Assembly: GCA_963737265.1 (NCBI GenBank)
Contig: CAVTRY010000013.1
Location: forward strand, 128,001-192,000
Direction: 5' to 3'
DNA from: an uncultured delta proteobacterium
GTDB taxonomy: Bacteria; Myxococcota_A; Polyangia; Fen-1088
Length of the DNA stretch: 64,000 bases
Positions within the stretch are counted from its first letter, which is position 1. Each line of letters opens with the position of its first letter. Position numbers and translations under genes: made by a program. Shown piece after piece: positions 46,716 through 63,676 of the stretch. Under the pieces are notes generated by a model, which did no database searches, was not told the origin of the DNA, and was given only the letters and a program-made list of their open reading frames with translations.

Positions 46716-48144
46716 CATAGGCATTAACCCAAAAACTTGCGATTTCTCCAAGAACGCCCGCATATGCTCGGGATGGACAACATAGCGAAGGACAGCACCA
46801 CGGGCGACTGGCCAATGATTGCGGCGCAGCTTCCATCCGGATGGGAGGATCTGGCGGTCGAGATGGGCGTGGTCTACACGAAGTTTCCGGCGCACATGGG
46901 CACGAAGGTGACCGAGGCGGCACATTTGCTGCAGCCGATTCTGTACCAGGTGGCGACGAACTCGTCGCTGGCCGTGACGGTGGCGATGGCGGCGGCGGCC
47001 GGGGTGATCAAGATGTCGGCAGTCGGGCTGCACAAGCGAATGAGAACCATTGGTCCCTACCTGGCGCGACTGGTGACGCTGATGACGGATGCCGAGGCTT
47101 CGTTCGCAGCGGAGCGATGGGCGGGCTACGACGTGGTGATCGTGGACGGCTCTTCGGTGTCGCGGCCAGGAGCCGAGGGCACCACGGCTCGCGTTCACTA
47201 TGCGCTGCGCTTGAGCACGTTGCGGCCTGTGCAAATCGAGGTCACGGATGACAAGGGCGGCGAGACGTTCAGAAACTTCGATGCCGAGGCGGGACAACTG
47301 TGGATGGGCGACCGCGGCTACTCGAACCCGCCTGGCATAGCGGCGATCATGGCGGCGGATGCCGACGTACTGGTCCGATACAACCGTGGCTCGCTTCCTC
47401 TGTACGGCATGAACGGGCAGCTACTCGACGTTCAGCGAATGCTGGCTCGCCTCAAGCATCCGGGGGTTGCACGCGAATGGTACGCAGAGGTCCATCCGCA
47501 GGGTGGCAAGGCGATCGCTGGCCGGCTGTGCGCGTTGCTCTTGCCGCCCGACAAAGCAGAGGAGGCTCGGCAGCGCGCGCGACGGGAACAAGGTCCGTCT
47601 GTGACTGAGGAAACCCTTGCGGCCGCGCAGTACGTGGTGGTGTTCACGACCGTACCGAGGTCGCGGCTGACCGCCGCCCTGGTCATGGAACTATACGGCC
47701 TCCGCTGGCAAATCGAGCTTCACATCAAGCGGGACAAATCCATCGCAGGGCTCGAACCGACTGCCCAACTTTCGCAACGACACTGTCTATTCCTGGATTT
47801 GCGCCAAGATGCTGCTTACCCAGATCGCCCGCAAACTTGCTACACCCAACGTGGCTATTCCCCCCTGTGGAGAACTCGACTGGTTCGGCATCCGACGAGC
47901 CGCAGAAAGGCGTCAGGGCCGGACTCAGGCGATCAAAGCACCGGGTCGTAGCCGAGCCATGGCGTCTCATGACCGTCCTCTGGCAAACCGTATGCGCGGC
48001 GCTCACGCCGATCAGCGCCAGTCGGTTTCCCGATTTCTTGCAGGCATTCCTTGACCACCTTCAACTCCAAGTCCCGCGCAAGCGTCTACGCAGCGCCGTT
48101 AAGTTCCAGCAACATCTTGCGGAGGAATTGGGTTAATGCCTATG
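46716..48144 (+). mobile_element. IS4-family insertion sequence
   Basis: 17-bp perfect IRs cataggcattaacccaa / ttgggttaatgcctatg; 11-bp target duplication ggcagcggccc (46705-46715, 48145-48155). Confidence 0.92.
46773..48136 (+). pseudogene. IS4-family DDE transposase, frameshifted near 47755 and again near 47860
   Basis: IVDGS, MGDRGY, LYGLRWQIELHIK (YREK signature); C-terminus split over frames. Confidence 0.85.
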
Positions 48145-48300
48145 GGCAGCGGCCCTCCCTTCAAAAATCTTCAAGACGGGTCCATTTATGGACACGTCTT
48201 GAGCGCGGGTATTGTTGTGTGCCTCCGCCATTCCCGCTTTTCCGACCGGATTTTGGCAAACGAGCTAAACTTCTTGCGCGAAGAGACGATTTATTGCGGC

Positions 48301-50229
48301 ATGAGGCAACCACTGCCACCGGTGATCGCGGTCGACGAAGCAAAGTGTGTCAACTGCCATGCCTGCATCTCCGCGTGCCCGGTCAAGTACTGCAATGACG
48401 GCAGTGGCGACACCATCAAGCTCGATCACGACCTGTGCATCGGATGCGGCCAATGCCTCAAGGCATGCACCCACGGAGCTCGCCTGCCCATGGATGACAC
48501 CGCGGCTCTTCTCAAGGATGCTGAAAGGCACATCCCCATGGTTGCCATCGCGGCCCCCGCCGTGGCCTCTTCGTTTCCCAACCAATACCTGAACCTCAAC
48601 GGCTGGCTCGCATCGATCGGGGTCGAGGCCGTGTTCGACGTCAGCTTCGGGGCCGAGCTGACCATCCGCTCGTACCTCGAGCACCTCAAGGCCAACCAGC
48701 CGAAATTGATCATCGCCCAACCCTGCCCGGCGCTCGTCAGCTACATCGAGATCTATCGCCCCGACCTTCTGCCCTATCTCGCTCCAGCGGACAGTCCGAT
48801 GATGCACACCCTGAAGATGATCCGCGAATACTACCCGCAGTATCGCTCGCACAAGCTGGTCATCCTGTCGCCCTGTGTGGCCAAGAAGCGCGAATTCGTC
48901 AGTGTCGGCATCGGCGACTACAACGTGACCCTGCATGCCTTGAAGCAGCACTTGACAAAGCACCGTATATCTCTCCACGCATTCCCCAAAGTCGACTTCG
49001 CCAATCCGCCCGCCGAGCGGGCCGTTCTGTTTTCGACGCCGGGCGGACTGCAACGCACGGCCGAGCGCTGGAATCCGGCCCTGCGCAACATCACGCGCAA
49101 AATCGAAGGGCCGCATGTCGTCTATCACTATCTGGACCATTTGTCTGCCATGGTCGACAAGGGTAAGGCCCCGCTGCTGGTTGATTGCCTGAACTGCGAT
49201 TTGGGGTGCAACGGCGGAACTGGAACCGATATGGCCGACGCCTCGCCCGACGAGGTGGAGTTTTCCATCGAAGAGCGCAATCAGGAGATGCAAGGGAAGC
49301 ACAAGCGGGCCGGATTCTTCACCGCGGCCCGCACCCGCCGGGCACTCGAAAAGATGGTCGACCGCTATTGGAAGCCAGGACTTTACGGCCGTTCTTATGC
49401 CCGCAACTCGGACGTGCAGCATCTAAACAAGCCGTCGCCGGCGCAATTGGAAGCTATCTACGCAACGATGCATAAGCACAAGCCGGAAGACAGGCAGAAC
49501 TGTTCGTCGTGTGGTTACGGCTCGTGCGACAAGATGGCGACGGCGATCCACAACGGGCTCAACCGCCCCGAAAACTGCCATCACTTCCTGCGCACGACTT
49601 TGGACGAGGAAAAGGCGCACACCGAGCAGAAGGTGCGGGATCGCACGCGCGAGCTCAACGAAATCGGGCGAGCCCAGCGCGAATCCTCGCAGCGTCTGGG
49701 AAGTGAGCTCACGACCGTCAGTAGGGCGGCGGAGGAGATGGCCCAAACCATCACCGACATCTCGACCAGCGCCGACAAAGCGCGTGCCATAACCACCGAT
49801 GCGGTGGAGAAGGCCGAGAAGGTCGTGACGGTCATGGAGGGGCTCGGCAAAGCGGCTGCCGACATCAGTAAGGTGACCGACGCCATCAACTCGATCTCGG
49901 CCCAAACCAACCTTCTTGCCCTGAACGCAACCATCGAAGCGGCCCGCGCCGGCGCGCTGGGGAAGGGCTTTGCCGTGGTCGCCAACGAAGTCAAAGAGCT
50001 CGCTCGTCAAGCGGCCACGGCGACCGACGACATCCGGGTCAAGATCAGCAGTGTTCAGGCATCCACCTCGAACGCCGTGGAAGGCATTTCCGGCGTGGCA
50101 GGCGTCGTTCGCGATGTCAGTGCAATCGTCTCGACGATTGCGGCCGCTATCGAGAAGCAATCCAGAGTCACCGAAGAGATCGCGACCAATATCGCCCGCG
50201 CCTCCGCCGAAGCCGCCCAGAGGGTTTAG
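48301..50229 (+). CDS. [FeFe]-hydrogenase-like sensor fused to an MCP signalling domain (group C2-like)
   Basis: Two 4Fe-4S motifs; [27 protein letters not shown] (variant P1-P3); [10 protein letters not shown]; [17 protein letters not shown]; no TM segment. Confidence 0.88.
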
Positions 50230-51132: not shown

Positions 51133-52188
51133 CTAGAAGCTCCCCGCGACCAACAACGACGCGCCCCCGGCCGTGGCGCTGATCGAGGGTCGAGCGGCGC
51201 GGCCCGGCGGAAACCAGTCCGGCCAGAATCGCCAAGCAATGTAGGTCGTCACGGCGGCGCTCGCGATTCCGACACTAAACGCCGCCGTGGAGATGCCAGC
51301 TGCTCGCTCCGCGCTTCGTCCCGCGTTCACTGCCGCGTCGCTGCACACGGTCTGTGCCTCGGGACAAAGCCGGGTGCGCTCGTCCCAATGCGATTTTGCT
51401 TGCAGTCCGTAGTAGGCCCCCACGGCGAGCGCCGTCACGGTCACGCTCGCTGCGGTCGAGCCCAAGGCAACCGAAGTCCAACCCCGGCGACGGGGCGGCT
51501 TGTCCTCGCTGGCGCTGGAGGAAGTCGCGGGCGCCGGCGTGACCGGAACCAGGGCCACAAGCGCCCGCAGCAATGGCACTTCAACGACCTTCGTGTCTCC
51601 TTCGTCGGCCAAGGTCACGTCGCTTTGCCAGTCCGCCCTTTCCGCGGCCGTGGCCCGCAGCGCGTGGCTTCCACCATCGACAGGATAGGGCGCGCCCCAG
51701 GCGGACTCCGGCAGGAGAACGCCGTCGAGCTCCAGCGAGAGCCCTGGCCTCCGGACGGTGGGCGACACGGATACGACGAGAGCCGATCGTCGTCCTCTCA
51801 ACTCGCCCATGCGTTGCTCCGCCAATTTCTCGCGCGCTGGCTTGTGTTCATTCTGGGCCAAGGACAGGACTGTCTTGTAGCTGGCCCAAGCGCTCGCCAG
51901 CTTGCCCTGACGTTCCTGGCAAAGGGCCAAATTGAGCGCGGTTCCGCTCGCTGGGTCCAGCCGCAGGCTCTCGGCGAAGAGCGGACAGGCCTTGTCGTAC
52001 TTCTGGGCAAGTAGGTGCGTGCGCCCTTCGGCGAACAGCGTTTCAGCCAGGGTTTCCCGTGCGTCGGTCGCGTCCGCCGCACGCGCCGGAAGGGCCACCC
52101 AAAAGCCGACTAAGACAGTCCATGTTCGGATTTGTCCTAGGCAGCGAAGAAGACGCCATCCCTCACTTGCGCTGCAGAAATTCTTCAT
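51133..52188 (-). CDS. TPR (PEGA-associated) membrane protein
   Basis: AETLFAEGR...ACPLFAESLRLDP...LNLALC; C-terminal TMs; start uncertain. Confidence 0.75.
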   Translation of the reverse strand: MKNFCSASEGWRLLRCLGQIRTWTVLVGFWVALPARAADATDARETLAETLFAEGRTHLLAQKYDKACPLFAESLRLDPASGTALNLALCQERQGKLASAWASYKTVLSLAQNEHKPAREKLAEQRMGELRGRRSALVVSVSPTVRRPGLSLELDGVLLPESAWGAPYPVDGGSHALRATAAERADWQSDVTLADEGDTKVVEVPLLRALVALVPVTPAPATSSSASEDKPPRRRGWTSVALGSTAASVTVTALAVGAYYGLQAKSHWDERTRLCPEAQTVCSDAAVNAGRSAERAAGISTAAFSVGIASAAVTTYIAWRFWPDWFPPGRAARPSISATAGGASLLVAGSF

Positions 52189-53605
52189 GCGTCGATAGAT
52201 CCGTGGAGGTCGCCGTCGACACGTTATCGGAGGTTCGAGTTGGGGGATTTTCCGATGCGGGACGAGCCGAGGGTTGGCGGGGACGTCTCGGACGAGAAGC
52301 CGGCAGGGCCCCATCGGTGACGAAAGATCGGACTTGCGCAGCCGCCGCCGTCGCTGAACCCGCGTCCCCGCGTGGCGGTACGCCACCAGCGTCAAGGCCG
52401 GCTGGCAGGGCCACCTCGGCGCGGTCCGGGGCGTATTCCCCTCGGACGAAGAGTGCGACGGCCGCCGCGATGCTGGCGGACGCGATCAGGCCACCGGCTA
52501 CCCAACCGGAGCGAAGCCTGCCACGTCGCGACTGAGGCGCGGGGATACTTGTCATGCTTAGTGGCCCACCCGTCTCGGTCGGTGGCCCCTGTCGTTCCCT
52601 GTCCGGCGCCTGAGCGGTGGACAAAGGCTCGGATTCAGTGCCGACGACGGGCTGCCAACCACTCGCGCGGCAAAGCTCCGACCAAAACTCACGCAGATTC
52701 GGATGCCGATCACGGGGACTCAAGGCGAGAGCTCGCGCGAACGCTTCCTCGACGAGGTCCGAGACTTGGCACCCGAGCGTGCGCGGCGTCGGGCGCACGG
52801 CGGCGTCCAGACACGCCGCCATCAATTGCGGTCCATCGGTTCCGTCGAGCGCGCGTCGACCCGCCATCATCTCGACCAGCACCAGTGCAAAAGCGTACAC
52901 GTCGGTCCAAGGCCCCGTGGCACCCAACCGCCGCAGCCATTGCTCGGGTGCGCTGTACGCGGGCGTGAAAGCCGTGGCGTCGCCCGTCGTGTCGGCCATC
53001 TGTCCCGTCAAGGTCGGCCATTGTCCCAAGACCTTGGCGACGCCAAAGTCGAGGATCTTCGCGGTCGTGGCGCCTTGCCGCCTGAGCAAGAAGATGTTGC
53101 CGGGTTTCACATCCCGATGAGCAATGCCTTCCACGTGCGCGACGGCCAGGCCGAGGGCGGCTTCGCGCAGGCATTGCAGTGCTTCGTCCAAGGCAAAGGT
53201 CGGCCGGGAACCCGCGCGTCGCGCGTGCAGCTCGGCTTCCAACGAAACCCCATCCAGCCACTCCATCGCGATGAATGGCAACACCGATCCATCGGCGACG
53301 GCCAAGGTTCCGGCATCGAATGAGCGCGCGATCGCGGGATGGACCGAGCCTAGCTTGAAGAGGAGCTTGCCTTCCGCCAGGAAGTGTTGAATGAACGCCG
53401 TTCTGTGCTCGTCATCGAGCCGGGCCGGCATTTTGAGCACCTTGATCGCGACGGGAACGTCCAAGGCCAGATGAATCGCCTTGTAGGTTACGCTAAAGCC
53501 GCCCTCGCCAATCCGTCGTTCGATGTGGTAGCGCCCGTCGATCACGCGGCCAGCGAGATCCATTCCACCACCGCCCGCGTGGTTCTTGTGTGGGGAGTCG
53601 GCCAC
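52163..53605 (-). CDS. Membrane-anchored Ser/Thr protein kinase
   Basis: IGEGGFS, VAIK, HRDVKPGN, DFG, APE, DVY; one TM. Confidence 0.93.
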   Translation of the reverse strand: MADSPHKNHAGGGGMDLAGRVIDGRYHIERRIGEGGFSVTYKAIHLALDVPVAIKVLKMPARLDDEHRTAFIQHFLAEGKLLFKLGSVHPAIARSFDAGTLAVADGSVLPFIAMEWLDGVSLEAELHARRAGSRPTFALDEALQCLREAALGLAVAHVEGIAHRDVKPGNIFLLRRQGATTAKILDFGVAKVLGQWPTLTGQMADTTGDATAFTPAYSAPEQWLRRLGATGPWTDVYAFALVLVEMMAGRRALDGTDGPQLMAACLDAAVRPTPRTLGCQVSDLVEEAFARALALSPRDRHPNLREFWSELCRASGWQPVVGTESEPLSTAQAPDRERQGPPTETGGPLSMTSIPAPQSRRGRLRSGWVAGGLIASASIAAAVALFVRGEYAPDRAEVALPAGLDAGGVPPRGDAGSATAAAAQVRSFVTDGALPASRPRRPRQPSARPASENPPTRTSDNVSTATSTDLSTHEEFLQRK

Positions 53606-53619
53606 GATCGTCGAGGTTC

Positions 53620-54951
53620 CTAATCCTGGCGCAGGGAGTCGGTCTCAATTCCAAGGCGTTCGCAGACCCGGTAAAAGGTCGCGCGGGATATCCCGAGGGC
53701 CGCCGCCGCGCGCGTCGCCACGCCCTTGGCGCCGACCATGGCGGCCCGCACCTGTTCCTTGGTCAAGGGCCCGTCGGACGAAAGCACGGGCCGGACATCC
53801 GGAAGATGCCGAACACTGATTTTCCTACTGTTACTCGCCATGGCTTGGCCAATGGCGTGCGAGACAGCGTACCTGAGATTGCGTACGTTTCCCTCCCAAT
53901 GGCCTAGGGCCAGCGCCTCCGCGGCGGTGGCGTCGAAAACCAGATCGGGTGCCTCCTCTGCAAGTATCGACTGCGCCAGGACCAACACCTCATCCCTGCG
54001 CTCGCGCAGCGGCGGAACCGAAATGATGAGGCCAGCCAGACGATAATAGAGATCCTTGCGAAAGGAGCCCGACGCTGAACAGGCCTTCAAATCCCGACTG
54101 GTCGCGCTGACCAAGCGAACATCCACGTCGACATCGCTGCGCGCGCCGACTGGACGAATCTGTTTGAGGTCGATGGCGCGCAAGAGCTTGGCTTGCAGAT
54201 CAAGGCCGAGGTCGGCGACCTCATCCAGGAACAAGACGCCACCGGAGGCCTCCCGAAAGGCTCCCGGATGGGCCGTGGCCGCCCCGGTGAAGGCGCCTCT
54301 TTCGTGCCCGAACAGCACCGATTCGAACAGAGGTGGAGGAATGGCGGCGACGTTCAGCCCGACGAACGGCCCCTTGTCTTTCCGGGTCGCATGCAGCAGC
54401 CGAGCGACGGCTTCCTTGCCGGTCCCGCTTTCGCCAAGCACCAGGACCGGCGCAGCTAGGTTGGCCACGCGGATGGCCTGTTCCCAAACGCGTCCCAAGG
54501 TTGGGCCGGCGATGACGTCCCGGGGTAGTCCGAGGAAACTGGCCGCGAGTCTCCTCGGCGCGACCTTGAATGCGTCGCCATCCCTCACCGCGAGCCAGAT
54601 GGTTGCGCCAAATCGCAGGATCGCGCCGAAGTCGGCGCAGACGCCGGCGGACTGGTCCACCCGTCGACCGTCGACAAAAGTCCCTCGCGTGGAACCCAAA
54701 TCCAGCACCTGCAAGCCCTTTGCCGAGGCATCAAGAACAGCGTGTCGCCGAGAGACCGTGCTGTCCTCGACCACGATACTCGAAGCCGGGTCGCGGCCGA
54801 GCTGACACTTGGTACGCACGGAGAAGATCGCCGGGGCCTGGTCTGCGACGGAGGGAAAGATCCGAACCAGTGCGGGTCGAAAAGGTGTTCGCCCTTCGTG
54901 GGGTGAGCCCTCGGTCGGGTCGATGGGCGCTGTTGTTGCTATGTCGGGCAT
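53620..54951 (-). CDS. FHA-domain sigma54 enhancer-binding protein
   Basis: FHA motifs GR..SRRH..GTF; [28 protein letters not shown]; Fis-type HTH. Confidence 0.93.
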
Positions 54952-55097
54952 GAAACTGCTGGTCGCGAAGCCTACGAGTCCGGAGCCGGCCGACCTATAG
55001 CACACCTAAGCGATGTGGGCGGCGACAGCTGAGTCAAACCCAGGCTGCCTACCGCCTGCCAAAGCCTTCGTCTTCCCTGCGGCATGCGTCACGCGAT

Positions 55098-55133
55098 CGT
55101 CTCAGCGAGATGGTCCCGTGTCTCACAAAGACA
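55098..55133. promoter_or_regulatory. Putative tandem enhancer sites
   Basis: cgtctcagcgagatg and tgtctcacaaagaca; gtctca cores 21 bp apart, about 90-110 bp upstream of the -24 element. Confidence 0.5.
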
Positions 55134-55207
55134 GTGCCGATTCCGCGATGGCCGAAAGAACCGCGCCGTCCCGATCGATTTTGCGGGGCCGCAACCAGAA
55201 ATTTCGG

Positions 55208-55223
55208 TGGCCTTCACCTTGCA
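55208..55223 (+). promoter_or_regulatory. Sigma54 promoter (-24/-12)
   Basis: TGGCcttcaccTTGCA, exact GG-N10-GC spacing, about 70 bp before the 55295 ATG. Confidence 0.7.
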
Positions 55224-55294
55224 TTACGCGCCGCTGTCCCGGATCGATTCCAGGTCCGGGTCGACGATCTACGGAAGAAAGAAAGGTATTTCAC

Positions 55295-58084
55295 ATGAAA
55301 GAGACGAGTAAAGACCGGTCTGTCGCCTGGAAGGCGGAGGCCGCGGTTCCGCCAGGTTTCGCGCGCCAATTAAAGTATTATAGGTCGCAAATATGTGAGT
55401 CCCGCGAGCGCCTAGGCGCCACTGGCATCGCCAGCTTGGCCGCCCTCGGAATGTTGTCGGCCTGCTCCGGGACGGCAACGTCGCAAGGAAATTCGATTCA
55501 GGCCCACCAAGCCGCCTTGACCACGGACTCGGGCCCGAGCCCGATGGGCTTCGAGTCGCCTTCCTATTGGCAGGTGACCCAGGGGAGCGTCCGCGCGCTG
55601 CAAAGCAGTGCGCAACGGACCAGTGGAGCCGCGGCCCTCGCTGTGGTCGGGCCATCGGGTTACGCGCGGATCGATAGCACTGCGTTATCGTCGACCAGTC
55701 CGGCGTTGGCGGGCTTGGCGACGGGAGCGAAGGCCGCAATTGACATCAACATCCCCGCGCAGCAAGCAAACCCGTACTGGTTTGGCGCGGTCCAGATGTA
55801 CGTGAATAGTCCGTCGCGTAACATCTATAATGGCTACCTCGGACAGGTCGAGCTCACGGGGATGCGCACAGGCAGCTATCAGACCATCCGCTTCGCGTTT
55901 CCCGACTACGTGGTTTCGGCGCTGACTGGAGCGAGTTTCGCGGACCTGACCTTCGGCATAGTTATCAATGTGCCGCAGAACAGCCCGGGCACCTATCTGC
56001 TCGACAATCTTCGTCTCAAGAGCAGCGTTTTGCCGCCGGCGCCGACCCAGCCTTCAACGGGAGAGTGGCAGGTTCCGGAAGGCCAGTCCACCACGCTCGT
56101 TGCTTGGAAGAGCATGACCGCTGGTGTGGCCGACCAGGTCGCGCAAGCCACGTTCACCCAGTCCTTGGCTCAGGTTCCACAGAGTCTGCACGTGGTCAAG
56201 GGCGCGGCGGGCGGTGGCACGGCGACCTTGGTGCTTGGTCTGACCGGCAGCACGGCCACGACCTGCACCTTTCAAGGTGACAGCGCCGGCGCGAACTATG
56301 TGCTTGTCTCTTGCACAGGTGGCGCGAAAGCAGGCGATCTGCTTCCCGCCGACAGCGTCACCCTGACGGTGAACACGGCCGACGCCAATTCACCCAAGAC
56401 CAAGATTCAGGCCCAGATCGCCCTGAATCCTGCGGGCGACGACATCGTCCAGGGGCTGCCGCCCATCCCGACCTATCTGGGATCTTCGGCGGCGGAAATG
56501 GCCGCCGCGCTCGACTCGTTCGCGCTGGCGCAGAAGAGCTGGCAGCTCGGCGACAACGTGGCGGTGCACCTGCCGACGCCGGAGCTCAACCTGCACGACA
56601 GCGAAACGACCAATGACGACATTCCGGCGCCGCAGCCGGGAGATACCGATCCGCCTTTCAAGAAGACTGTCAACCTGACCAACAGTGACATGGCGGACGC
56701 GCGCTGGCACCTCAACGGATCCATTGACGCGAATACAGACAGCGCCGGCACCCGCCACACGCATTTCGACAACACGGTGGGGACGGACATCTACATTCTT
56801 GGTGCGAAGATCAATTTGATGTCGATCAGCGCGACAGTCGATGCCAGCTCACCGGCCCCTAGCCTTGGCGGCGGCACCGGAACGTCGACGGCCAAGTACT
56901 GCTACTCGTATATCCTCCAGACCGAGCAGTGCAAGAACGCCAGCGGCAACATCGCCGCCCCCATCGATTTGTTCCGGGACAGCCCCAGCATCACCTTCAT
57001 CGACTTCACCTGGTGGATCTTCCACGTGGGTGCGAGTGGCGGTCTCGATATCTACGCCACGGTTCAAGGCGACGTCACGCCCAACGGCCTGGCGATCACC
57101 TTGACGCCGGGCGCGGCTTTGTGGTTCAAAGTGGAGGCCGGTGTCGCGGTCGGCTTTGCGGGCGGAGGTTTGTGGGGTCAGATCGACCTATTCAGAGTCC
57201 AGATTCCAATCACGGTTGGCGCTTCCATTGTCACCAACGTGGATCCGCGCGTGTGCACGCAAACTGTCAGCGAATCCCTCAGCGCACAATTGCAGTTCTC
57301 GGCTCTTGGAGGCAAGTTGGGCTACTACCTCGAAGGTGGTCTAACCTGCGGTTGGTGGGGTGGCCTGTGCTGGCGCGATGACGAAACGATCTTCCCCTGG
57401 GATGGACTAAAGGCGAATTACAACATCATTCCAGCGACCCCTCTCGTGAACCAGACTACCCCGCTGCCTCATGCGACTTGCGCTGTGCCCGGCGACGCCC
57501 CAGGCAAGGTGGACTATCCGGTGGATAGTGAATTATTTCCGCAAGGCACGACATCGTTCCTGACGGGAGAGTTCTCGCGACGTATTCCCCAGGATCCGCC
57601 GTCGGTTCCCCCGGTCGTCATGGACACGCCATTCGACTGCAAGACTTTCACGTGGTTCTCCAGTGATCCGTCTGACGTGATCACGGCGGTCCCGGGCCAG
57701 GCCATCGGCTGCACGCCCCAGATCGTCTACGGCAATCCCGGGACGCGCACCATCACCGTCGTGGCGAGCGATCCCGCGCTCGGCAACGGCAGCGCCAGCG
57801 TGCAGGTCACGGTTTCGCCCGCTCTGCCCAATCCGCCCATCCCAACCATCACCAGCATTGGCGGTTGCAATGGTCAGGCACAAGGAACGGCGACGGATCC
57901 GCTGGCCCAAGACCTGACGCTAAGCTGGTACGAGGAGCCTGGCGACCACGCGGTCGGTACGGGCACCACCTCGGGCAATCTGGGAGGTGGTTTCTCGGGC
58001 GCCCTTCGTCTGGCGGCCTCCGCACCGGACGGACGCGTGGGCGTCGTCGAGAGCCCTCTCCTGGTCTTCTGCGAGCCGAAGTAA
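55295..58084 (+). CDS. Large secreted lipoprotein: CBM-like domain, long amphipathic beta-sheet region, Ig-like tail
   Basis: LSAC lipobox; GFES...YLLDNLRL jelly-roll-like segment; long alternating hydrophobic strands in the second half. Confidence 0.7.
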   Translation: MKETSKDRSVAWKAEAAVPPGFARQLKYYRSQICESRERLGATGIASLAALGMLSACSGTATSQGNSIQAHQAALTTDSGPSPMGFESPSYWQVTQGSVRALQSSAQRTSGAAALAVVGPSGYARIDSTALSSTSPALAGLATGAKAAIDINIPAQQANPYWFGAVQMYVNSPSRNIYNGYLGQVELTGMRTGSYQTIRFAFPDYVVSALTGASFADLTFGIVINVPQNSPGTYLLDNLRLKSSVLPPAPTQPSTGEWQVPEGQSTTLVAWKSMTAGVADQVAQATFTQSLAQVPQSLHVVKGAAGGGTATLVLGLTGSTATTCTFQGDSAGANYVLVSCTGGAKAGDLLPADSVTLTVNTADANSPKTKIQAQIALNPAGDDIVQGLPPIPTYLGSSAAEMAAALDSFALAQKSWQLGDNVAVHLPTPELNLHDSETTNDDIPAPQPGDTDPPFKKTVNLTNSDMADARWHLNGSIDANTDSAGTRHTHFDNTVGTDIYILGAKINLMSISATVDASSPAPSLGGGTGTSTAKYCYSYILQTEQCKNASGNIAAPIDLFRDSPSITFIDFTWWIFHVGASGGLDIYATVQGDVTPNGLAITLTPGAALWFKVEAGVAVGFAGGGLWGQIDLFRVQIPITVGASIVTNVDPRVCTQTVSESLSAQLQFSALGGKLGYYLEGGLTCGWWGGLCWRDDETIFPWDGLKANYNIIPATPLVNQTTPLPHATCAVPGDAPGKVDYPVDSELFPQGTTSFLTGEFSRRIPQDPPSVPPVVMDTPFDCKTFTWFSSDPSDVITAVPGQAIGCTPQIVYGNPGTRTITVVASDPALGNGSASVQVTVSPALPNPPIPTITSIGGCNGQAQGTATDPLAQDLTLSWYEEPGDHAVGTGTTSGNLGGGFSGALRLAASAPDGRVGVVESPLLVFCEPK

Positions 58085-58149
58085 ACACGAACTGCTAACC
58101 TGGGGGCCGCTTGGCGAATCGCCAGGCGGCCCCACCTTTCGCGAGAACC

Positions 58150-60003
58150 ATGATGTCACACAAACGCCTCTTTCTTGTCGCTGGTCTGGTCCTGGTGGGT
58201 TCGGCTTCGGCCATCGCCTGGTCCCGGCTGCATTCGGCCGCGCCACCAACAGTGGGTTGTTTCCGATTGGGCGAGCAGATTCGCAGCAAAATGGATCTCA
58301 AGCTGTCCGTGAGCATGGGCCGGTCCAAACCACAGCACATGACACTGACCGGCGAGCTCGCGGCCACACCCGTGGATCGTCACGATGGCGTTGTGGAAGT
58401 TGCCTATGAGCTTACTCAGGCACAGGCCAACCTGGCGGCCAACGACGGCCTGCCTACCCCGGAACTCCATCAGGCCGAGTTGGAACTCGCCAGTGGGCTC
58501 GGGCAACGTTTCTATGTGCGCTACCGTCCCGACGGAGCGGCGGTGGCCATCAGTTTCGATCGTGGTTACGAGGTCGGCTTTGCCAATGTGTTGCGCACGA
58601 TTGTTGGCATGGCGCAAATTGTTCAAGGAACGCAAACCGCGCCGACATGGACCGTGCTGGAGGAGGACGCCAACGGCCAGTACCTCGCGTCCTATGCTCG
58701 CACGGATGGACCACGGCTGACCAAGCGAAAGCTCCGCTACATTGTGGAGAGCGACGCCGCCCACACGAACAAACAGCAAACCGCTGTCGTTCCGATCCCT
58801 CAGCTCGACGAAGCAAGCTTCGAGCTAACGCCGGACGCACGCGGACGAATTCGGGAAATGCAGGGGCGCGAAAAGGTCAACCTGTCGCTTCCCGCGGCCC
58901 ATTTGAGCGTGGAGACCGACGCTGAATTACGCCTTTCCCAGTCAACCGTCGTCATGGTGACCGCGTTGGTCGGCGACTACCAACGGCGCAAGAACGAGGT
59001 TCTGACCCAGCCCATGCAAGGCACTTCAGGGGATCCCAAGGTGCAGCGTGGTTTCAATGATCGGAAGGTCCTCGGCCGAGCGACCCTCGACCAACTGTGG
59101 GGCGAGCTCTTGGCGTCTCCGGATCCGAGCAATTCGGCCAAGAACGCGGACACCGTTCGGCGCTTCGAGGCGCTGTTTCGCCTACAAGAGTCCACCATCG
59201 CGGAAATCCTGAAGCGTCTTGCCGGCACGTCCCCGCAACTCGCGAAGATCGTGGTGGACGCACTCTCGCTCGCCGGGACAGAGGCCACGCAGGATGCCTT
59301 GGCCGCCATCGCCGTCGATGAACACTTTTCCGATCTTCCCCGTTCCTATGCTCTCCGTTACCTTGCCCACCAGGATACCCCAACCGCCGCGGCGCTGGCC
59401 GCGGCAGAGCGACTTATCGACGATGGCAATGAAGACCGCCGTCAGATGGCGCGTTTCGCCTATGGAACGCTCGCTTCCAAGCTCGCGGGCGAGCATCCAA
59501 GCCAAGCCGATTCCATGGTGCGTACGCTGCTGCAAAGACTTGAACGGTCCGCCAACGATGAAGAGCGGAGCGATCTCTATCTGGCCTTGGGCAATACCGC
59601 CAATATGGCCGCCTTCGAGGCACTTCAGCAAGCGACCACGAAGGGCTCACTTCTGCTGCGAGCAACGGCTCTTCAAGCCATCGGCCGCATCAACGATCCA
59701 CGCGTGATTCCACTGCTGGAGGCCGCGCTTGTTTCCAGGGAGCAATCGATCCGCATGGCCACCATGGACGGCATCGGTCGCCGCGAGATAGGCCCCTTCC
59801 TGCCTGCTCTGGTGAAGACAGCGCAAACCGACGAGAGTCCCTATGTGCGAAGCGCGGCTGTCGATCACCTTGGGTCGGCGCTCGACGCGGCTCCGCAACT
59901 GCGTGCGGTGCTGTCCGAGCGAGCCAGCAAGGACAGCGATGCCAAAGTTCGAGCCGCCGCCGTTCGAGCCCTCGAACCGAGATCGGCCACGCGGCAATAC
60001 TAG
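58150..60003 (+). CDS. Exported HEAT-repeat protein with vitellogenin/MTP N-terminal-like architecture
   Basis: Signal anchor; beta-rich N-half with EEDANGQYLASY; helical half with DALSLAGT, LALGN and HEAT repeats. Confidence 0.7.
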   Translation: MMSHKRLFLVAGLVLVGSASAIAWSRLHSAAPPTVGCFRLGEQIRSKMDLKLSVSMGRSKPQHMTLTGELAATPVDRHDGVVEVAYELTQAQANLAANDGLPTPELHQAELELASGLGQRFYVRYRPDGAAVAISFDRGYEVGFANVLRTIVGMAQIVQGTQTAPTWTVLEEDANGQYLASYARTDGPRLTKRKLRYIVESDAAHTNKQQTAVVPIPQLDEASFELTPDARGRIREMQGREKVNLSLPAAHLSVETDAELRLSQSTVVMVTALVGDYQRRKNEVLTQPMQGTSGDPKVQRGFNDRKVLGRATLDQLWGELLASPDPSNSAKNADTVRRFEALFRLQESTIAEILKRLAGTSPQLAKIVVDALSLAGTEATQDALAAIAVDEHFSDLPRSYALRYLAHQDTPTAAALAAAERLIDDGNEDRRQMARFAYGTLASKLAGEHPSQADSMVRTLLQRLERSANDEERSDLYLALGNTANMAAFEALQQATTKGSLLLRATALQAIGRINDPRVIPLLEAALVSREQSIRMATMDGIGRREIGPFLPALVKTAQTDESPYVRSAAVDHLGSALDAAPQLRAVLSERASKDSDAKVRAAAVRALEPRSATRQY

Positions 60004-60240: not shown

Positions 60241-61659
60241 TTATCCCCGCGCCGGCGTTGCGTTTGCGTGGCTGGAGCGCGGGGGCGGAGCCTTTTTGCT
60301 GCCACTCTTGTCGCCGTTATCGAGGATGAAGTAGTTCACGCCCGGAGTCCCGCAGGCGTCGCCGTTGCGGTGGAATTTCCAGTGGAGGTAGACCTTGCCG
60401 TTCCCTGACAGGATGGCGGTTGGCGGCGTGGGAAAGGGCGCGGCAGCGTACACGGCGCTGATGGCGGCGCCATCGAAGCCCGTGATTCCCGACGTGCGCA
60501 CCATGGCGATTTTGTCCACGTTGCCTTCTCCATCCAAGACGATTTCCAATTTCGCGACCAGTTTCAGGTCGTTCATGGGGCTATCCCGGAACGACGTGTC
60601 CATTTGGGTCAGAAAACCAAACGCCCACTTTTCGTGGATTTGACGGTGCATGCGCGTGATGAATTGCGCGAACGGGGCGGCTCGGGTATTCAGCTCGGTT
60701 TGGTTGTCCGGCGTGACTTCATCGATGAAATTCTCCAGAGCAGAAAACACGCGCTCATTCCGCTCGGTGAATTTCCCTTTGTGTTTGGATCTTTCCTGCT
60801 TGGCCACCGCCGCCGCCGTTTCGGCGTCGTCGCCAAACGTCGAGGCGTAGCCTTGCTTGGTTAAATGGGGTGGATCGGCCATGGTGGAAGCACGACGCGG
60901 CCCTTCTGCCTCGCGCCGACCATCTTCCGCCTTGGAGAGCATTCCGTCGGGATCTTCCGGGAGCAGATCACCCCGCGCGCCGGCCTTTTCCAGGCCAGGC
61001 ACACGCATGGACAAGGTGGGGCGGGGCTCGATCATGGGATTTGACTCCTCGGCCAGGGCTTTGCGCCCGCGCTGGCCGGGCTTTGCCTCCCTGTCTTCCA
61101 GTTGCGCGATTTTGTCCTTGTCGTCGGATGGCTCAGATGGTTTTCCTTGTCGATTCTTTTCCAGGTTGGTTTGCCGGGCGCGGGTCTCATGTTCGGCGCG
61201 ATTGTTTCGCTGGGCCAGGTACTTGGCGTCCTTGGCTGCGTCCTCCTCTTTGCCCATGTCCAGGTCGACCATCTTTTGCCCAGGCAACTCCTCCGGTTGC
61301 GCCACAGTTTTCTCTTCGGGCTTGGGCGCCACCGGCTCGGGTTGCGGCGGTTTGGGCTCACGCGCGCGCTCGGCACTAGCTTGTGGTCTGGGCGGCTTGG
61401 CAGTGGGCGACTTTTCGGTCCTTTCGGGCAGTTTCGTTGCCTTGCTCGGCTCCATCGGTTCTTCAACGGCGGGCAGGTTGGGCGGTAGCTCCTCGTCCTT
61501 GACGGACTCGAAGCTTAGTCCCACTTCGTTGTTCGCGGGCTTGTCCCACCAAAACACCCATGCCATGAGCGGCACCAGCACTTGCGCATGCAGGAGAATG
61601 GACAGCAGCAGTCCACGGCCAATCCGGCCGCGATCTCGCCGCGTTTTCTGCCATGCCAT
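60241..61659 (-). CDS. TonB-family protein
   Basis: TM with SxxxH (SILLH); Pro/charged linker; TonB_C motif TSG...FD.AAI.AV..AAPF.TPP. Confidence 0.85.
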   Translation of the reverse strand: MAWQKTRRDRGRIGRGLLLSILLHAQVLVPLMAWVFWWDKPANNEVGLSFESVKDEELPPNLPAVEEPMEPSKATKLPERTEKSPTAKPPRPQASAERAREPKPPQPEPVAPKPEEKTVAQPEELPGQKMVDLDMGKEEDAAKDAKYLAQRNNRAEHETRARQTNLEKNRQGKPSEPSDDKDKIAQLEDREAKPGQRGRKALAEESNPMIEPRPTLSMRVPGLEKAGARGDLLPEDPDGMLSKAEDGRREAEGPRRASTMADPPHLTKQGYASTFGDDAETAAAVAKQERSKHKGKFTERNERVFSALENFIDEVTPDNQTELNTRAAPFAQFITRMHRQIHEKWAFGFLTQMDTSFRDSPMNDLKLVAKLEIVLDGEGNVDKIAMVRTSGITGFDGAAISAVYAAAPFPTPPTAILSGNGKVYLHWKFHRNGDACGTPGVNYFILDNGDKSGSKKAPPPRSSHANATPARG

Positions 61660-61748
61660 GTGCGAAGCGGAGGTTACCTGAACACCGCGCTTGATTCACG
61701 AGGTTACGGCTCTTACGCGAAGTCTTCGATTCGCGTACAATCCCCGCC

Positions 61749-62762
61749 ATGGACATCGTACTTGGCGTTCTCCTCGGATCGATTCTGTGGTTTTTTGCCC
61801 GCTACGGCCTGGGCGGCTTCTACACTATCGGGCCCAACGAGCGGGCTGTCCTCTGCACCTTCGGGCGCGCGCAACGACTGGGGGAGGAAACGACGCTGAG
61901 CGATCCTGTCGCCGAGAAGCTGAATGACGATGAGAAGCAGCGCTACGATTACCCGCAGGTGCGGGTCATCGGGCCAGGCTTCCATTGGAAGCTGCCGTGG
62001 CAAACCTTGCACCGCACCTCCATCGCTACCTCGACGGTTTCCATCGCCTTCGATCCCGAGGATCCTTCAGCCAACTCGAGCGGGCAGGTTTTGGAGGCGG
62101 TCACCAAGGATCAGTTGAACACCGGCTTGGTCGGCCAGATCCGCTTCACCGTGTCCGAGCGCAATCTGTACGCCTACTTCTTTGGCGTCAAGCGCCCGGT
62201 CGCGCATGTACTTGGCTACTTCGTTTCGGTCTTGCGCGACCGCATCGCCAACTTCGAGGCCCCCGACAAGGCGCGCGCCACCGGCGCCGAACCCGCCGAC
62301 GCGACCGACATCAGCGGCGTGCAAGGGATCTCCATCAATGACCTGCGCAAGAACCTGCGCGACCTCAACGAGCGCATGGATGCCGAGTGCGAAACCGCAG
62401 CCGCGCGCTACGGCATCCACCTCGATGCCGCCCTCATCACCGGCATCGATCCGCCGGCCGAGGTGGATTCGGCGCTTGCCGCCATCAACACCGCGCACAA
62501 CCTCGTGTCGAGCGAAATCAGCCTGGCGCAAGCCGCGGCCGACCAGCGCATCGTCCAGTCCAAACGCGCGGTGGAGATCGAAACTCTGAACGCACAGGCA
62601 GAAGTCGAGCCCTTGCTTGCCCTCGCCGATCAGCTACGTGACCTCGCGGGCAACGGCGGTCCACAGGCCCTCGAGGCCTACGTGCGCAATGCCAAGATCG
62701 CGCTGCAACGCCGGGCGCGCACCCTGGTCTTGCAAAACGCCACCCTGGGAGGGACCAAGTGA
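61749..62762 (+). CDS. SPFH/band-7 domain protein
   Basis: N-terminal TM; ERAV..FG, GPGFHWKLPW, TKD motifs; coiled-coil tail. Confidence 0.88.
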   Translation: MDIVLGVLLGSILWFFARYGLGGFYTIGPNERAVLCTFGRAQRLGEETTLSDPVAEKLNDDEKQRYDYPQVRVIGPGFHWKLPWQTLHRTSIATSTVSIAFDPEDPSANSSGQVLEAVTKDQLNTGLVGQIRFTVSERNLYAYFFGVKRPVAHVLGYFVSVLRDRIANFEAPDKARATGAEPADATDISGVQGISINDLRKNLRDLNERMDAECETAAARYGIHLDAALITGIDPPAEVDSALAAINTAHNLVSSEISLAQAAADQRIVQSKRAVEIETLNAQAEVEPLLALADQLRDLAGNGGPQALEAYVRNAKIALQRRARTLVLQNATLGGTK

Positions 62763-63676
62763 TGGACTCGTCGGTGATGGAGTTCTTCACGGCGCTGCTC
62801 TACACCTTCGGCGGGTGTTTCATCCTCATTCCGGTCGCGCTGGCCTGCGCGCGCATGTTCGCCATGTACGTGGTGGTTAGCGAACGGCAGTGCGTGGTCT
62901 TCGAGCTATTCGGCAAGGTGCGCTTGGTGCAGAGCGAGCCCGGCCTTCACTGCCCGTGGCTCAAGTTAGGTCCTTTCGCGATCTTGCTGCCGCTGTTTGG
63001 CAAGAAATTCACGGTGGACATGCGCATCGACCAGACCTACTTGCGCAGCCAGCCCGTGAATTCCGAGGAAGGCGCGCCCATGGGCATCGGCGTGTGGTGC
63101 GAAATGGTGGTCAGCGATCCCGTCGATTACCTCTATAAGAATACCGATCCGCTCGGCTCGTTGCGCGCCAACGTCTCGAACGCCACGGTCCGCTGCCTGT
63201 CCAACATGAAGCTGTCCGACATGCTGGAAAATCGCCACGGCATGAGCCGACTGGTTCGCCAGGAAGTCACCTCCAAGTCGCAGGAATGGGGCTACCAGGT
63301 CGGCAGCATCTACATCCGCAAGGTGCATTTCCGCGACCGTGGCATGATTTCGCAAATCGAGCAGAAAGTGGTGAACCGCCTACGCCAGGTGACGGCCGCC
63401 ATTCAGCAAGACGGCGCCAACCGCGTGAACGTCATCCACTCGACCGCCGAGCGCCAGGCCGCCGTCGAATTCGCCAAAGCCGCAGCCACGCGACCGCGAA
63501 TCGTCGGCAAGGCACTGGGACAAATCGCCGAGAATCCGCTCATCGCCAAGGCCTTGTTCGAAGTCCTGGAAACCCAGGCGCTGCTCGCCAGCAACAGCCT
63601 GGAAGTGAATGTCATGGCACCCGGGATTTCGATCCTCTACAGCATGGGCGGCCCCGCCGCGGCTCCGCGCACCTAG
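62759..63676 (+). CDS. SPFH/band-7 domain protein
   Basis: N-terminal TM; LFGK...EPGLH, DPVDYLY, WGY motifs; GTGA overlap with previous gene. Confidence 0.88.
   Translation: MMDSSVMEFFTALLYTFGGCFILIPVALACARMFAMYVVVSERQCVVFELFGKVRLVQSEPGLHCPWLKLGPFAILLPLFGKKFTVDMRIDQTYLRSQPVNSEEGAPMGIGVWCEMVVSDPVDYLYKNTDPLGSLRANVSNATVRCLSNMKLSDMLENRHGMSRLVRQEVTSKSQEWGYQVGSIYIRKVHFRDRGMISQIEQKVVNRLRQVTAAIQQDGANRVNVIHSTAERQAAVEFAKAAATRPRIVGKALGQIAENPLIAKALFEVLETQALLASNSLEVNVMAPGISILYSMGGPAAAPRT

Follow-up and report, generated by a model that had tools for sequence, protein, structure and literature searches.

The closest described relatives of the gene pair treated here are the large lipid transfer proteins (LLTPs), namely MTP, vitellogenin/lipovitellin and apoB. 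The smallest of them is the MTP large subunit (MTP-alpha; PDB 6I7S and 8EOJ), for which the available excerpt of PMC6717300 gives a beta-barrel at residues 21-297, a helical domain at 298-603 and a lipid-binding domain formed by the A and C beta-sheets at 604-884 (~281 amino acids, aa). According to the same excerpt, the A-sheet, the longer of the two, packs with one half on the barrel, and the C-sheet forms a lining of the helical domain; a barrel disulfide (C174-C194 in MTP) is common to MTP, lipovitellin and apoB. The present analysis concerns two successive open reading frames, ORF1 and ORF2, in a 64,000-nucleotide (nt) stretch of DNA from an uncultured delta proteobacterium (assembly GCA_963737265.1, contig CAVTRY010000013.1, positions 128,001 to 192,000), hereafter called the window. 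Both genes lie on the + strand and are separated by 65 nt: ORF1 (55295..58084) encodes a 929-aa multidomain putative lipoprotein, the proposed partner subunit, and ORF2 (58150..60003) encodes a 617-aa protein, exported to judge from its sequence, with the barrel and helical domain of an LLTP N-terminal module.

It appears probable, if only by a little, that the two products form a split, envelope-tethered, two-subunit relative of MTP, vitellogenin/lipovitellin and apoB. In such a module a strand domain of ORF1 would supply in trans what the A and C beta-sheets give in cis in MTP, and the heterodimer would surround a hydrophobic pocket in which lipids, or hydrophobic molecules of another kind, are held or from which they are handed on. 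The acyl anchor of ORF1 would tether the complex to a membrane, its CBM-like, Ig-like and PKD-like domains (carbohydrate-binding module and immunoglobulin types among them) would direct it to a glycan surface, be it on prey cells or in the envelope or matrix of the producer itself, and expression might depend on sigma-54 through a divergently encoded FHA-type activator. Compared with MTP, the candidate third domain is found on a separate upstream gene, inside a lectin/Ig/PKD lipoprotein, and has neither sequence likeness nor demonstrated fold likeness to the A and C sheets. Furthermore, the bacterial pair has no PDI partner and no conserved barrel disulfide, and its setting is the bacterial envelope instead of the endoplasmic reticulum.

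The LLTP N-terminal module of ORF2

The N-terminal module of the LLTPs, with its beta-barrel and two-layer helical domain, has a homologue in ORF2. Pfam Vitellogenin_N (PF01347) matches residues 339-517 (nt 59164-59700; profile positions 326-528 of 590) with 46.3 bits against a gathering cut-off of 24 (E 3.2e-12), and the last third of the protein is covered by HEAT_2 (74 bits; match at 458-537), residues ~458-610 being canonical HEAT_2 repeats. Sequence searches of the PDB retrieved only designed alphaRep/HEAT proteins (best E 1.4e-14), which are uninformative on the barrel, and an NCBIfam scan gave only NblB/CpcE-type HEAT matches far under the cut-off. The AlphaFold2 model, computed from a 10-row alignment with a mean pLDDT of 84.9, comprises 12 strands plus helices between residues 42 and 288, including a helix at 103-117, and 19 helices between 296 and 608. 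This bears out an earlier note on this DNA, in which a beta-rich N-terminal half followed by helical repeats had been proposed. As in the LLTP N-terminal module, with its barrel of ~280 and its helical domain of ~300 residues, a barrel surrounds a helix (residues 33-292; 58246..59025, + strand) and a two-layer helical domain follows straight after it (residues 296-608; 59035..59973, + strand). A putative signal peptide or signal anchor precedes the barrel (residues 1-32; 58150..58245, + strand), with a hydrophobic 15-mer (Kyte-Doolittle mean 2.29) after Lys-Arg.

The likeness extends to the fold. The 11 best Foldseek matches of the ORF2 model in the PDB are all LLTPs; MTP (6i7s, E 1.5e-17), lipovitellin (1lsh, 4.4e-14), MTP again (8eoj) and honey-bee vitellogenin stand in the top rows, five apoB100 entries, the isolated barrel included, are among the matches, and HEAT and armadillo proteins rank below all LLTPs. 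Alignment with VIA-align returned the values 18.7, 6.1 and 238 for the apoB100 barrel (ORF2 residues 33-292 to 40-311), 17.6, 10.0 and 521 for MTP (36-617 to 26-625) and 16.8, 8.5 and 539 for lipovitellin (37-614 to 17-633), at a sequence identity of 9-16% in the structural alignments. Helical-repeat proteins score equally high on the helical half alone, so that the argument rests on the barrel and on the full-length alignments. Prokaryotic HEAT-repeat proteins of the PBS-lyase type and designed alphaRep proteins do resemble ORF2 at ~458-610, but the N-terminal barrel of ORF2 and the first, Vitellogenin_N-type half of its helical domain have no counterpart in them. Since the MTP helical domain ends at residue 603 in the excerpt of PMC6717300, ORF2 stops at the boundary between the N-terminal module and the lipid-binding sheets; its chain ends with the helical domain and contains neither A nor C sheet. 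In the same way it is distinguished from lipovitellin/vitellogenin and the N-terminal region of apoB100 (PDB 1LSH, 9ENS/9ENR, 9BD8, 9EA7), which are proteins of 1,300-4,500 aa with an open beta-sheet, DUF1943, VWD and phosvitin parts that the 617-aa ORF2 lacks.

The barrel carries the motif W167-x3-E-x-D-x2-G-x-Y-x-A-x-Y182, in which W167, E171, D173, G176, Y178, A180 and Y182 are invariant in a 10-row alignment of close relatives (A1). In a 21-row alignment of distant members (A4), Y182 is invariant and W167, E171 and G176 are nearly so, and within the family the motif is, judged from these alignments, more than a product of chance. The earlier note had given ExDxxGxCxxxY as the barrel motif of animal LLTPs; its Cys is replaced by Tyr here, and ORF2 as a whole has one Cys.

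A word-based search found 9 relatives of ORF2 besides the window protein. A profile of ORF2 residues 33-470 built from the 21 diverse members of A4 and searched against 1.84 billion representatives retrieved 8,326 clusters at E≤1e-3, 3,840 at 1e-10 and 1,489 at 1e-30. The best 150 of these matches are all 427-675 aa long with near end-to-end profile coverage, and an N-terminal hydrophobic segment is found in 123 of the 147 new family proteins among them. When every second one of the best 150 was checked against Pfam, 57 of the 74 sampled representatives passed the Vitellogenin_N cut-off. One (P0167) spans profile positions 8-589 of 590, a near-full match by which the barrel is recognised by sequence too, and two more members match from position 78. 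Among 401 sampled genomes of the phylum, 51 match A1 at E≤1e-10, many in the HEAT part only, and at least 23 have a match that includes the barrel region (three candidates per genome scored). With A4, proteins of 861-2455 aa yielded no fused, longer form, a result of little weight, and a search for near relatives over 339-1080 aa gave only proteins of 594-660 aa. As the existing Pfam model recognises ORF2, the domain match as such is already contained in databases; the two-gene architecture and its breadth appear undescribed, and no description of a bacterial LLTP family member was found in the literature as judged by titles and abstracts.

The ORF1 strand domain and its linkage to ORF2-type genes

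ORF1 is, by its sequence, a lipoprotein, as the earlier note had it. The signal peptide (55295..55465, + strand) ends in the lipobox LSAC with Cys57, which is invariant in 17 of 17 rows of the ORF1 alignment (A2); 15 of the 16 close homologues have a lipobox pattern and the 16th has a Cys at the equivalent place. The candidate lipid-pocket half is a conserved amphipathic beta domain with long strands at residues 436-720 (56600..57454, + strand). The run of long amphipathic strands that had been noticed there is reproduced in the ORF1 model (pLDDT 71.8), with 15 strands of up to 28 residues between 454 and 711 and alternating hydrophobicity: the hydrophobic fraction is 0.80 at odd against 0.10 at even positions of strand 576-595, and 0.36 against 0.91 in strand 598-619. 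The strands are rich in Gly, Ala, Ser and Thr, and the ORF1 family has five invariant cysteines within the domain plus C729 just after it. At ~260-285 aa, its size is close to that of the MTP A/C-sheet domain (~281 aa in the excerpt of PMC6717300).

Of ORF1, nothing but the strand domain is conserved beside ORF2-like genes elsewhere. From 75 places with an A1 match, 20 loci were fetched from 16 other genomes of the phylum; they were chosen by barrel coverage or high score and are not a random sample. A hidden Markov model (HMM) of ORF1 residues 436-716, iterated on the upstream neighbours, detected the domain in 5, then 8, then 9 of 20 upstream proteins. In five loci, the upstream gene encodes a giant protein that shares its C-terminus with an HMM-positive protein (BLASTP E 1.6e-57 to 3e-15), and a search of all frames revealed the domain in further genes that adjoin ORF2-like genes. 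With the final profile, a strand-domain gene adjoins the ORF2-like gene in 18 of the 20 fetched loci; many of the locus sequences are themselves in the profile and match by construction, L029, L033, L035 and L044-L047 being outside it. The pair is also present in all four loci from named genomes, Archangium gephyra SDU49 included, so that together with the window itself the linkage is found in 23 of 25 loci. Five whole genomes contain 11 strand-domain genes and 13 N-module genes, and for 10 of the former the same contig carries an N-module gene no more than 6 kb away (nine adjacent, one 5.6 kb off), the 11th being on a short contig. Linkage of the two gene families outside the window, on which the two-halves proposal had been made to depend, is borne out in these genomes.

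Apart from the strand domain, the partner proteins vary: they carry C-type lectin (Lectin_C), CBM96, Laminin_G_3, ricin-like or Cys-rich repeat regions and range from 332 to more than 2,832 residues. Because the heads vary while the strand domain stays, the conserved unit is the strand domain plus the N-module, with interchangeable lectin-type heads. The distances among strand domains and among ORF2-like proteins are correlated over 23 pairs (Mantel r 0.74; 0 of 2,000 permutations as high), which is not counted toward binding because any co-inherited neighbours would give it.

Several arrangements differ from that of the window. In five loci of one family of the same phylum (L034, L039, L040, L041 and L043), the strand domain is the C-terminus of giant proteins, 1,601 to more than 2,832 aa long as far as the loci extend, with Laminin_G_3, Dicty_CTDC, RCC1 and somatomedin-B-like repeats. 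In L034, L040 and L041 a downstream gene of 717-732 aa without a Pfam family overlaps the end of the ORF2-like gene by 4 nt, and L039 and L043 have a downstream frame of 782-792 aa. As regards a third component, the translationally coupled downstream genes of six other loci match no Pfam family, and a counterpart of them is absent from the window. In L032 (10148-17580, - strand) a single ORF2-like gene is preceded by two paralogous partner genes in tandem (1,201 and 1,217 aa), whose products both have the strand domain at the C-terminus and Trp as the last residue; one of them matches CBM96. The gene order is variable, the strand-domain gene lying 3' of the ORF2-like gene in G324:C1:7889480-7893444, L025 and L029, in L025 convergently. 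In the cultured myxobacterium Archangium gephyra SDU49 (L047; NZ_CP102578.1, ~9.511-9.516 Mb), an 840-aa frame with the strand domain at 531-747 overlaps with its end the start of a 636-aa ORF2-like gene.

The predicted complex and the competing explanations

The complex of ORF2 residues 33-617 and ORF1 residues 436-720, both given as alignments, was predicted in three runs next to three controls. An interface was obtained, as the two-halves proposal had implied, with an ipSAE of 0.71 (runs 0.67-0.75) against 0.00 for the best control; the ipSAE mark, reached by 58 of 80 solved complexes and 2 of 110 mismatched pairs, is only a rough guide with custom alignments. At least 65% of the contacts, which number 246-290, recur between the runs, and 195-215 pairs are confident. 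On the ORF2 side, the interface takes in the barrel (residues between 52 and 256) and nine helices (296-308, 333-345, 362-375, 395-405, 428-445, 470-482, 501-511, 532-542 and 564-576). As these are every second helix, they correspond to one layer of the two-layer solenoid. The predicted docking of ORF1 equals the packing of the MTP A and C sheets as described in the excerpt of PMC6717300. The predictor, at least, treats the pair like an LLTP.

Taken as a whole, the interpretation of the two genes as the two halves of an LLTP is partly supported. The part that concerns ORF2 holds; as for ORF1, the other half would amount to only ~280 of 929 residues, beside a lectin-like head and Ig/PKD-like domains. 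The heterodimer had been imagined as secreted; with the lipoprotein features of ORF1 and the signal peptide or signal anchor of ORF2, the pair looks envelope-tethered instead of freely secreted. Four findings had been named beforehand as capable of refuting the idea, and three of them came out in its favour (likeness to Vitellogenin_N, interface and linkage). A likeness of the ORF1 strand region to the LLTP beta-sheet shell, which had also been expected, did not emerge from Pfam, from PDB sequences or from the whole-model fold matches shown.

A number of observations weigh against a two-subunit LLTP. Pfam at E≤10 yields no LLTP family for 17 strand-domain members, with two stray single-member matches, and the strand-domain profile (A3) has 0 matches among PDB sequences at E≤10. 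Among the 50 matches shown each by Foldseek and VIA-align wide for the whole ORF1 model, in which residues outside 77-381 were barely tested, there is no LLTP, and neither is there an outer-membrane barrel or an aerolysin. The strand domain is modelled with moderate confidence only (pLDDT 66-68 in the complex, monomer block means mostly ~60-83). The conserved LLTP barrel disulfide is impossible in ORF2 because its sole Cys in the whole frame is C37. No lipid-metabolism genes were seen among the window neighbours of the pair, and among the 20 fetched loci a strand-domain neighbour is missing from L027, which lies at a contig start, and from L042. Finally, the complex score may reflect the predictor's memory of single-chain LLTPs and so show likeness rather than binding.

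Searches of the ESM Atlas bear both on the pocket and on a different function of the strand domain. The search by features gave no named cluster, and the search by structure, made with the Atlas model of a homologue and yielding leads only, placed two unnamed bacterial clusters first (TM 0.66 and 0.62), followed in rows 3-8 by TonB-receptor, autotransporter and TraF barrels at TM 0.39-0.47. These weak barrel neighbours count against the pocket and would fit a surface-display or adhesin system, in which the strand domain is an outer-membrane anchor or type V-like translocator barrel that exposes lectin-type domains, ORF2 is a periplasmic scaffold or chaperone and no lipid cargo is involved. The C-terminal position of the domain in the partners of most loci, behind variable lectin-type "passengers", would agree with this, as would ~270 aa of amphipathic strand meander, which fit a barrel of 12-16 strands, and Phe or Trp as the last residue of 5 of the 20 partners. 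However, the other 15 have no C-terminal aromatic residue, the Atlas matches stay under TM 0.5 and derive from a model of pLDDT 0.57, and neither ORF1 nor the 17 domain members match an outer-membrane or autotransporter family in Pfam, even at E≤10, nor did the fold matches mentioned above include one. In the window the domain is internal to a lipoprotein, with two PKD-like domains after it and the invariant cysteines inside and just behind it, and the complex prediction buries much of it on the ORF2 helices and not in a membrane. Such a display system is considered unlikely.

Still more improbable is a lectin-targeted membrane attack, with the strand domain as a beta-pore-forming or membrane-inserting module aimed at prey or competitors and ORF2 keeping it soluble or inactive until delivery. 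A variable lectin head with a conserved long-hairpin beta module recurs across loci and brings to mind lectin-aerolysin fusions; the strand composition is of a suitable kind, and the organism belongs to a predatory phylum with Polyangia and Archangium as named relatives. Against this, neither Aerolysin nor ETX_MTX2 nor any toxin family was found in Pfam (E≤10) or among the fold matches shown, ORF1 would be lipid-anchored to its producer, and the predicted interface is very large and domain-like, beyond what is expected of a transient chaperone. An equally doubtful explanation as the surface display is that the LLTP N-module serves as a lipid-free barrel-plus-HEAT platform for protein contacts, the pair being a complex for envelope sensing or matrix binding that is controlled by sigma-54 and a Ser/Thr kinase. 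The ordinary HEAT repeats in the C-terminal 150 residues of ORF2, for which alphaRep proteins were the only PDB sequence matches, and the neighbouring genes for an FHA-sigma-54 activator, a protein kinase and a TPR protein speak for it, and the excerpt of PMC6717300 reports that the MTP barrel and helical domains bind apoB and PDI. It leaves unexplained, however, the strict pairing with one amphipathic sheet domain sized like the MTP lipid-binding domain, and the regulators are not conserved neighbours, the fetched loci differing in their context by informal comparison.

The two-subunit LLTP can also be phrased for the family as a whole. Bacteria would then carry a large family of two-gene LLTPs in which an exported ORF2-type cradle receives its missing amphipathic sheet domain in trans from exchangeable surface proteins that bear lectin-type domains and reach more than 2,800 residues, forming a lipid pocket that can be aimed at different glycan surfaces, with MTP, vitellogenin and apoB as its fused descendants or a fused sister form. 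This wider proposal is a tentative one, conceivable but falling somewhat short of an even chance. If it is true, the origin of lipoprotein-type lipid transport moves outside the animals, and the split form would provide an outgroup against which the origin of apoB, MTP and vitellogenin could be traced. With its swappable targeting heads it would provide a simple system for the loading and unloading of an LLTP pocket, and it could be a means by which predatory soil bacteria capture or traffic lipids. The cultured carrier, Archangium gephyra SDU49, makes the module testable.

Further features of ORF1 and the genomic surroundings

ORF1 starts at ATG 55295 within an open frame of 55013-58084, with a purine-rich stretch before it and no in-frame ATG, GTG or TTG between this codon and the lipobox; ORF2 starts at ATG 58150 within an open frame of 58111-60003. 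The translation of ORF1 contains FIDFTWWIFHVGASGG and QFSALGGKLGYYLEG, that of ORF2 contains EEDANGQYLASY, VVDALSLAGTEATQDAL and LYLALGNTA, and both + strand frames and all five strings quoted in the earlier note were recovered. Between the signal peptide and the strand domain, ORF1 has a CBM-like, lectin-type beta-sandwich (residues 82-244; 55538..56026), an Ig-like beta-sandwich (264-379; 56084..56431), assigned from the secondary structure of the model and the dominance of Ig-repeat proteins in the Foldseek list, and a helix at 399-415 that is found in the model only. Two PKD/Big-like domains follow the strand domain (733-927; 57491..58075), all of these on the + strand. No Pfam or NCBIfam family matched ORF1. 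For the whole model, Foldseek returned Ig/cadherin/PKD-type multidomain proteins at TM 0.07-0.13, and VIA-align wide returned CBMs and PKD/Big domains. Unlike described CBM beta-sandwich modules (CBM27, CBM15, CBM28, CBM4/22), ORF1 has neither a Pfam CBM match nor an attached glycoside hydrolase. The protein collection contains 20 homologues of ORF1 (16 full-length plus fragments), five of the full-length ones being on contigs equal in length to that of an ORF2 relative, and among the 401 phylum genomes a full-length ORF1 is found in the window's own genome only, other matches being single domains.

Divergently from ORF1, an FHA-domain sigma-54 activator is encoded at 53620..55005 on the - strand (Pfam Sigma54_activat 189.7 bits, FHA 48.8 bits), a candidate regulator of the pair. 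Beyond it, a Ser/Thr protein kinase and then a TPR protein are encoded, the three genes (51133-55005, - strand) being transcribed away from ORF1. A sigma-54-type promoter-like element with TGGC-N8-TTGCA spacing lies at 55208..55223 (+ strand), 72 nt 5' of the ORF1 start, and matches the pattern with 2 mismatches. Across the window this pattern occurs at chance level (89 observed against 79 expected), so that what speaks for the element is only its position and the divergent activator gene; from position alone, we infer a regulatory link between the activator and ORF1/ORF2. A promoter scan of the stretch gave no sigma-70-like sites, and a terminator scan gave 2 terminator-like sites, both within ORF1 and below the shuffle mean.

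Downstream of ORF2, the region 60241-63676 contains a gene on the - strand for a 472-aa protein with a TonB C-terminal domain (TonB_C), followed by two tandem SPFH/Band 7 genes on the + strand. The source assembly comprises 6.55 Mb in 25 contigs, of which the window is on contig 13; the window DNA was found in soil-metagenome runs of one study, with no RNA run listed for the stretch. The named relatives with the gene pair are Polyangia metagenome-assembled genomes and Archangium gephyra, which places the host in the Myxococcota. Further upstream in the window, a DDE transposase gene (46737-47951, + strand; DDE_Tnp_1, 34.8 bits) is flanked by an ArsA-like ATPase gene and a hydrogenase-like chemoreceptor gene. 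The latter (48136-50229, + strand) encodes a 697-aa protein that combines 4Fe-4S ferredoxin motifs, an iron-only-hydrogenase large-subunit C-terminal domain and a methyl-accepting chemotaxis signalling domain, and its product is possibly a redox- or H2-sensing chemoreceptor.

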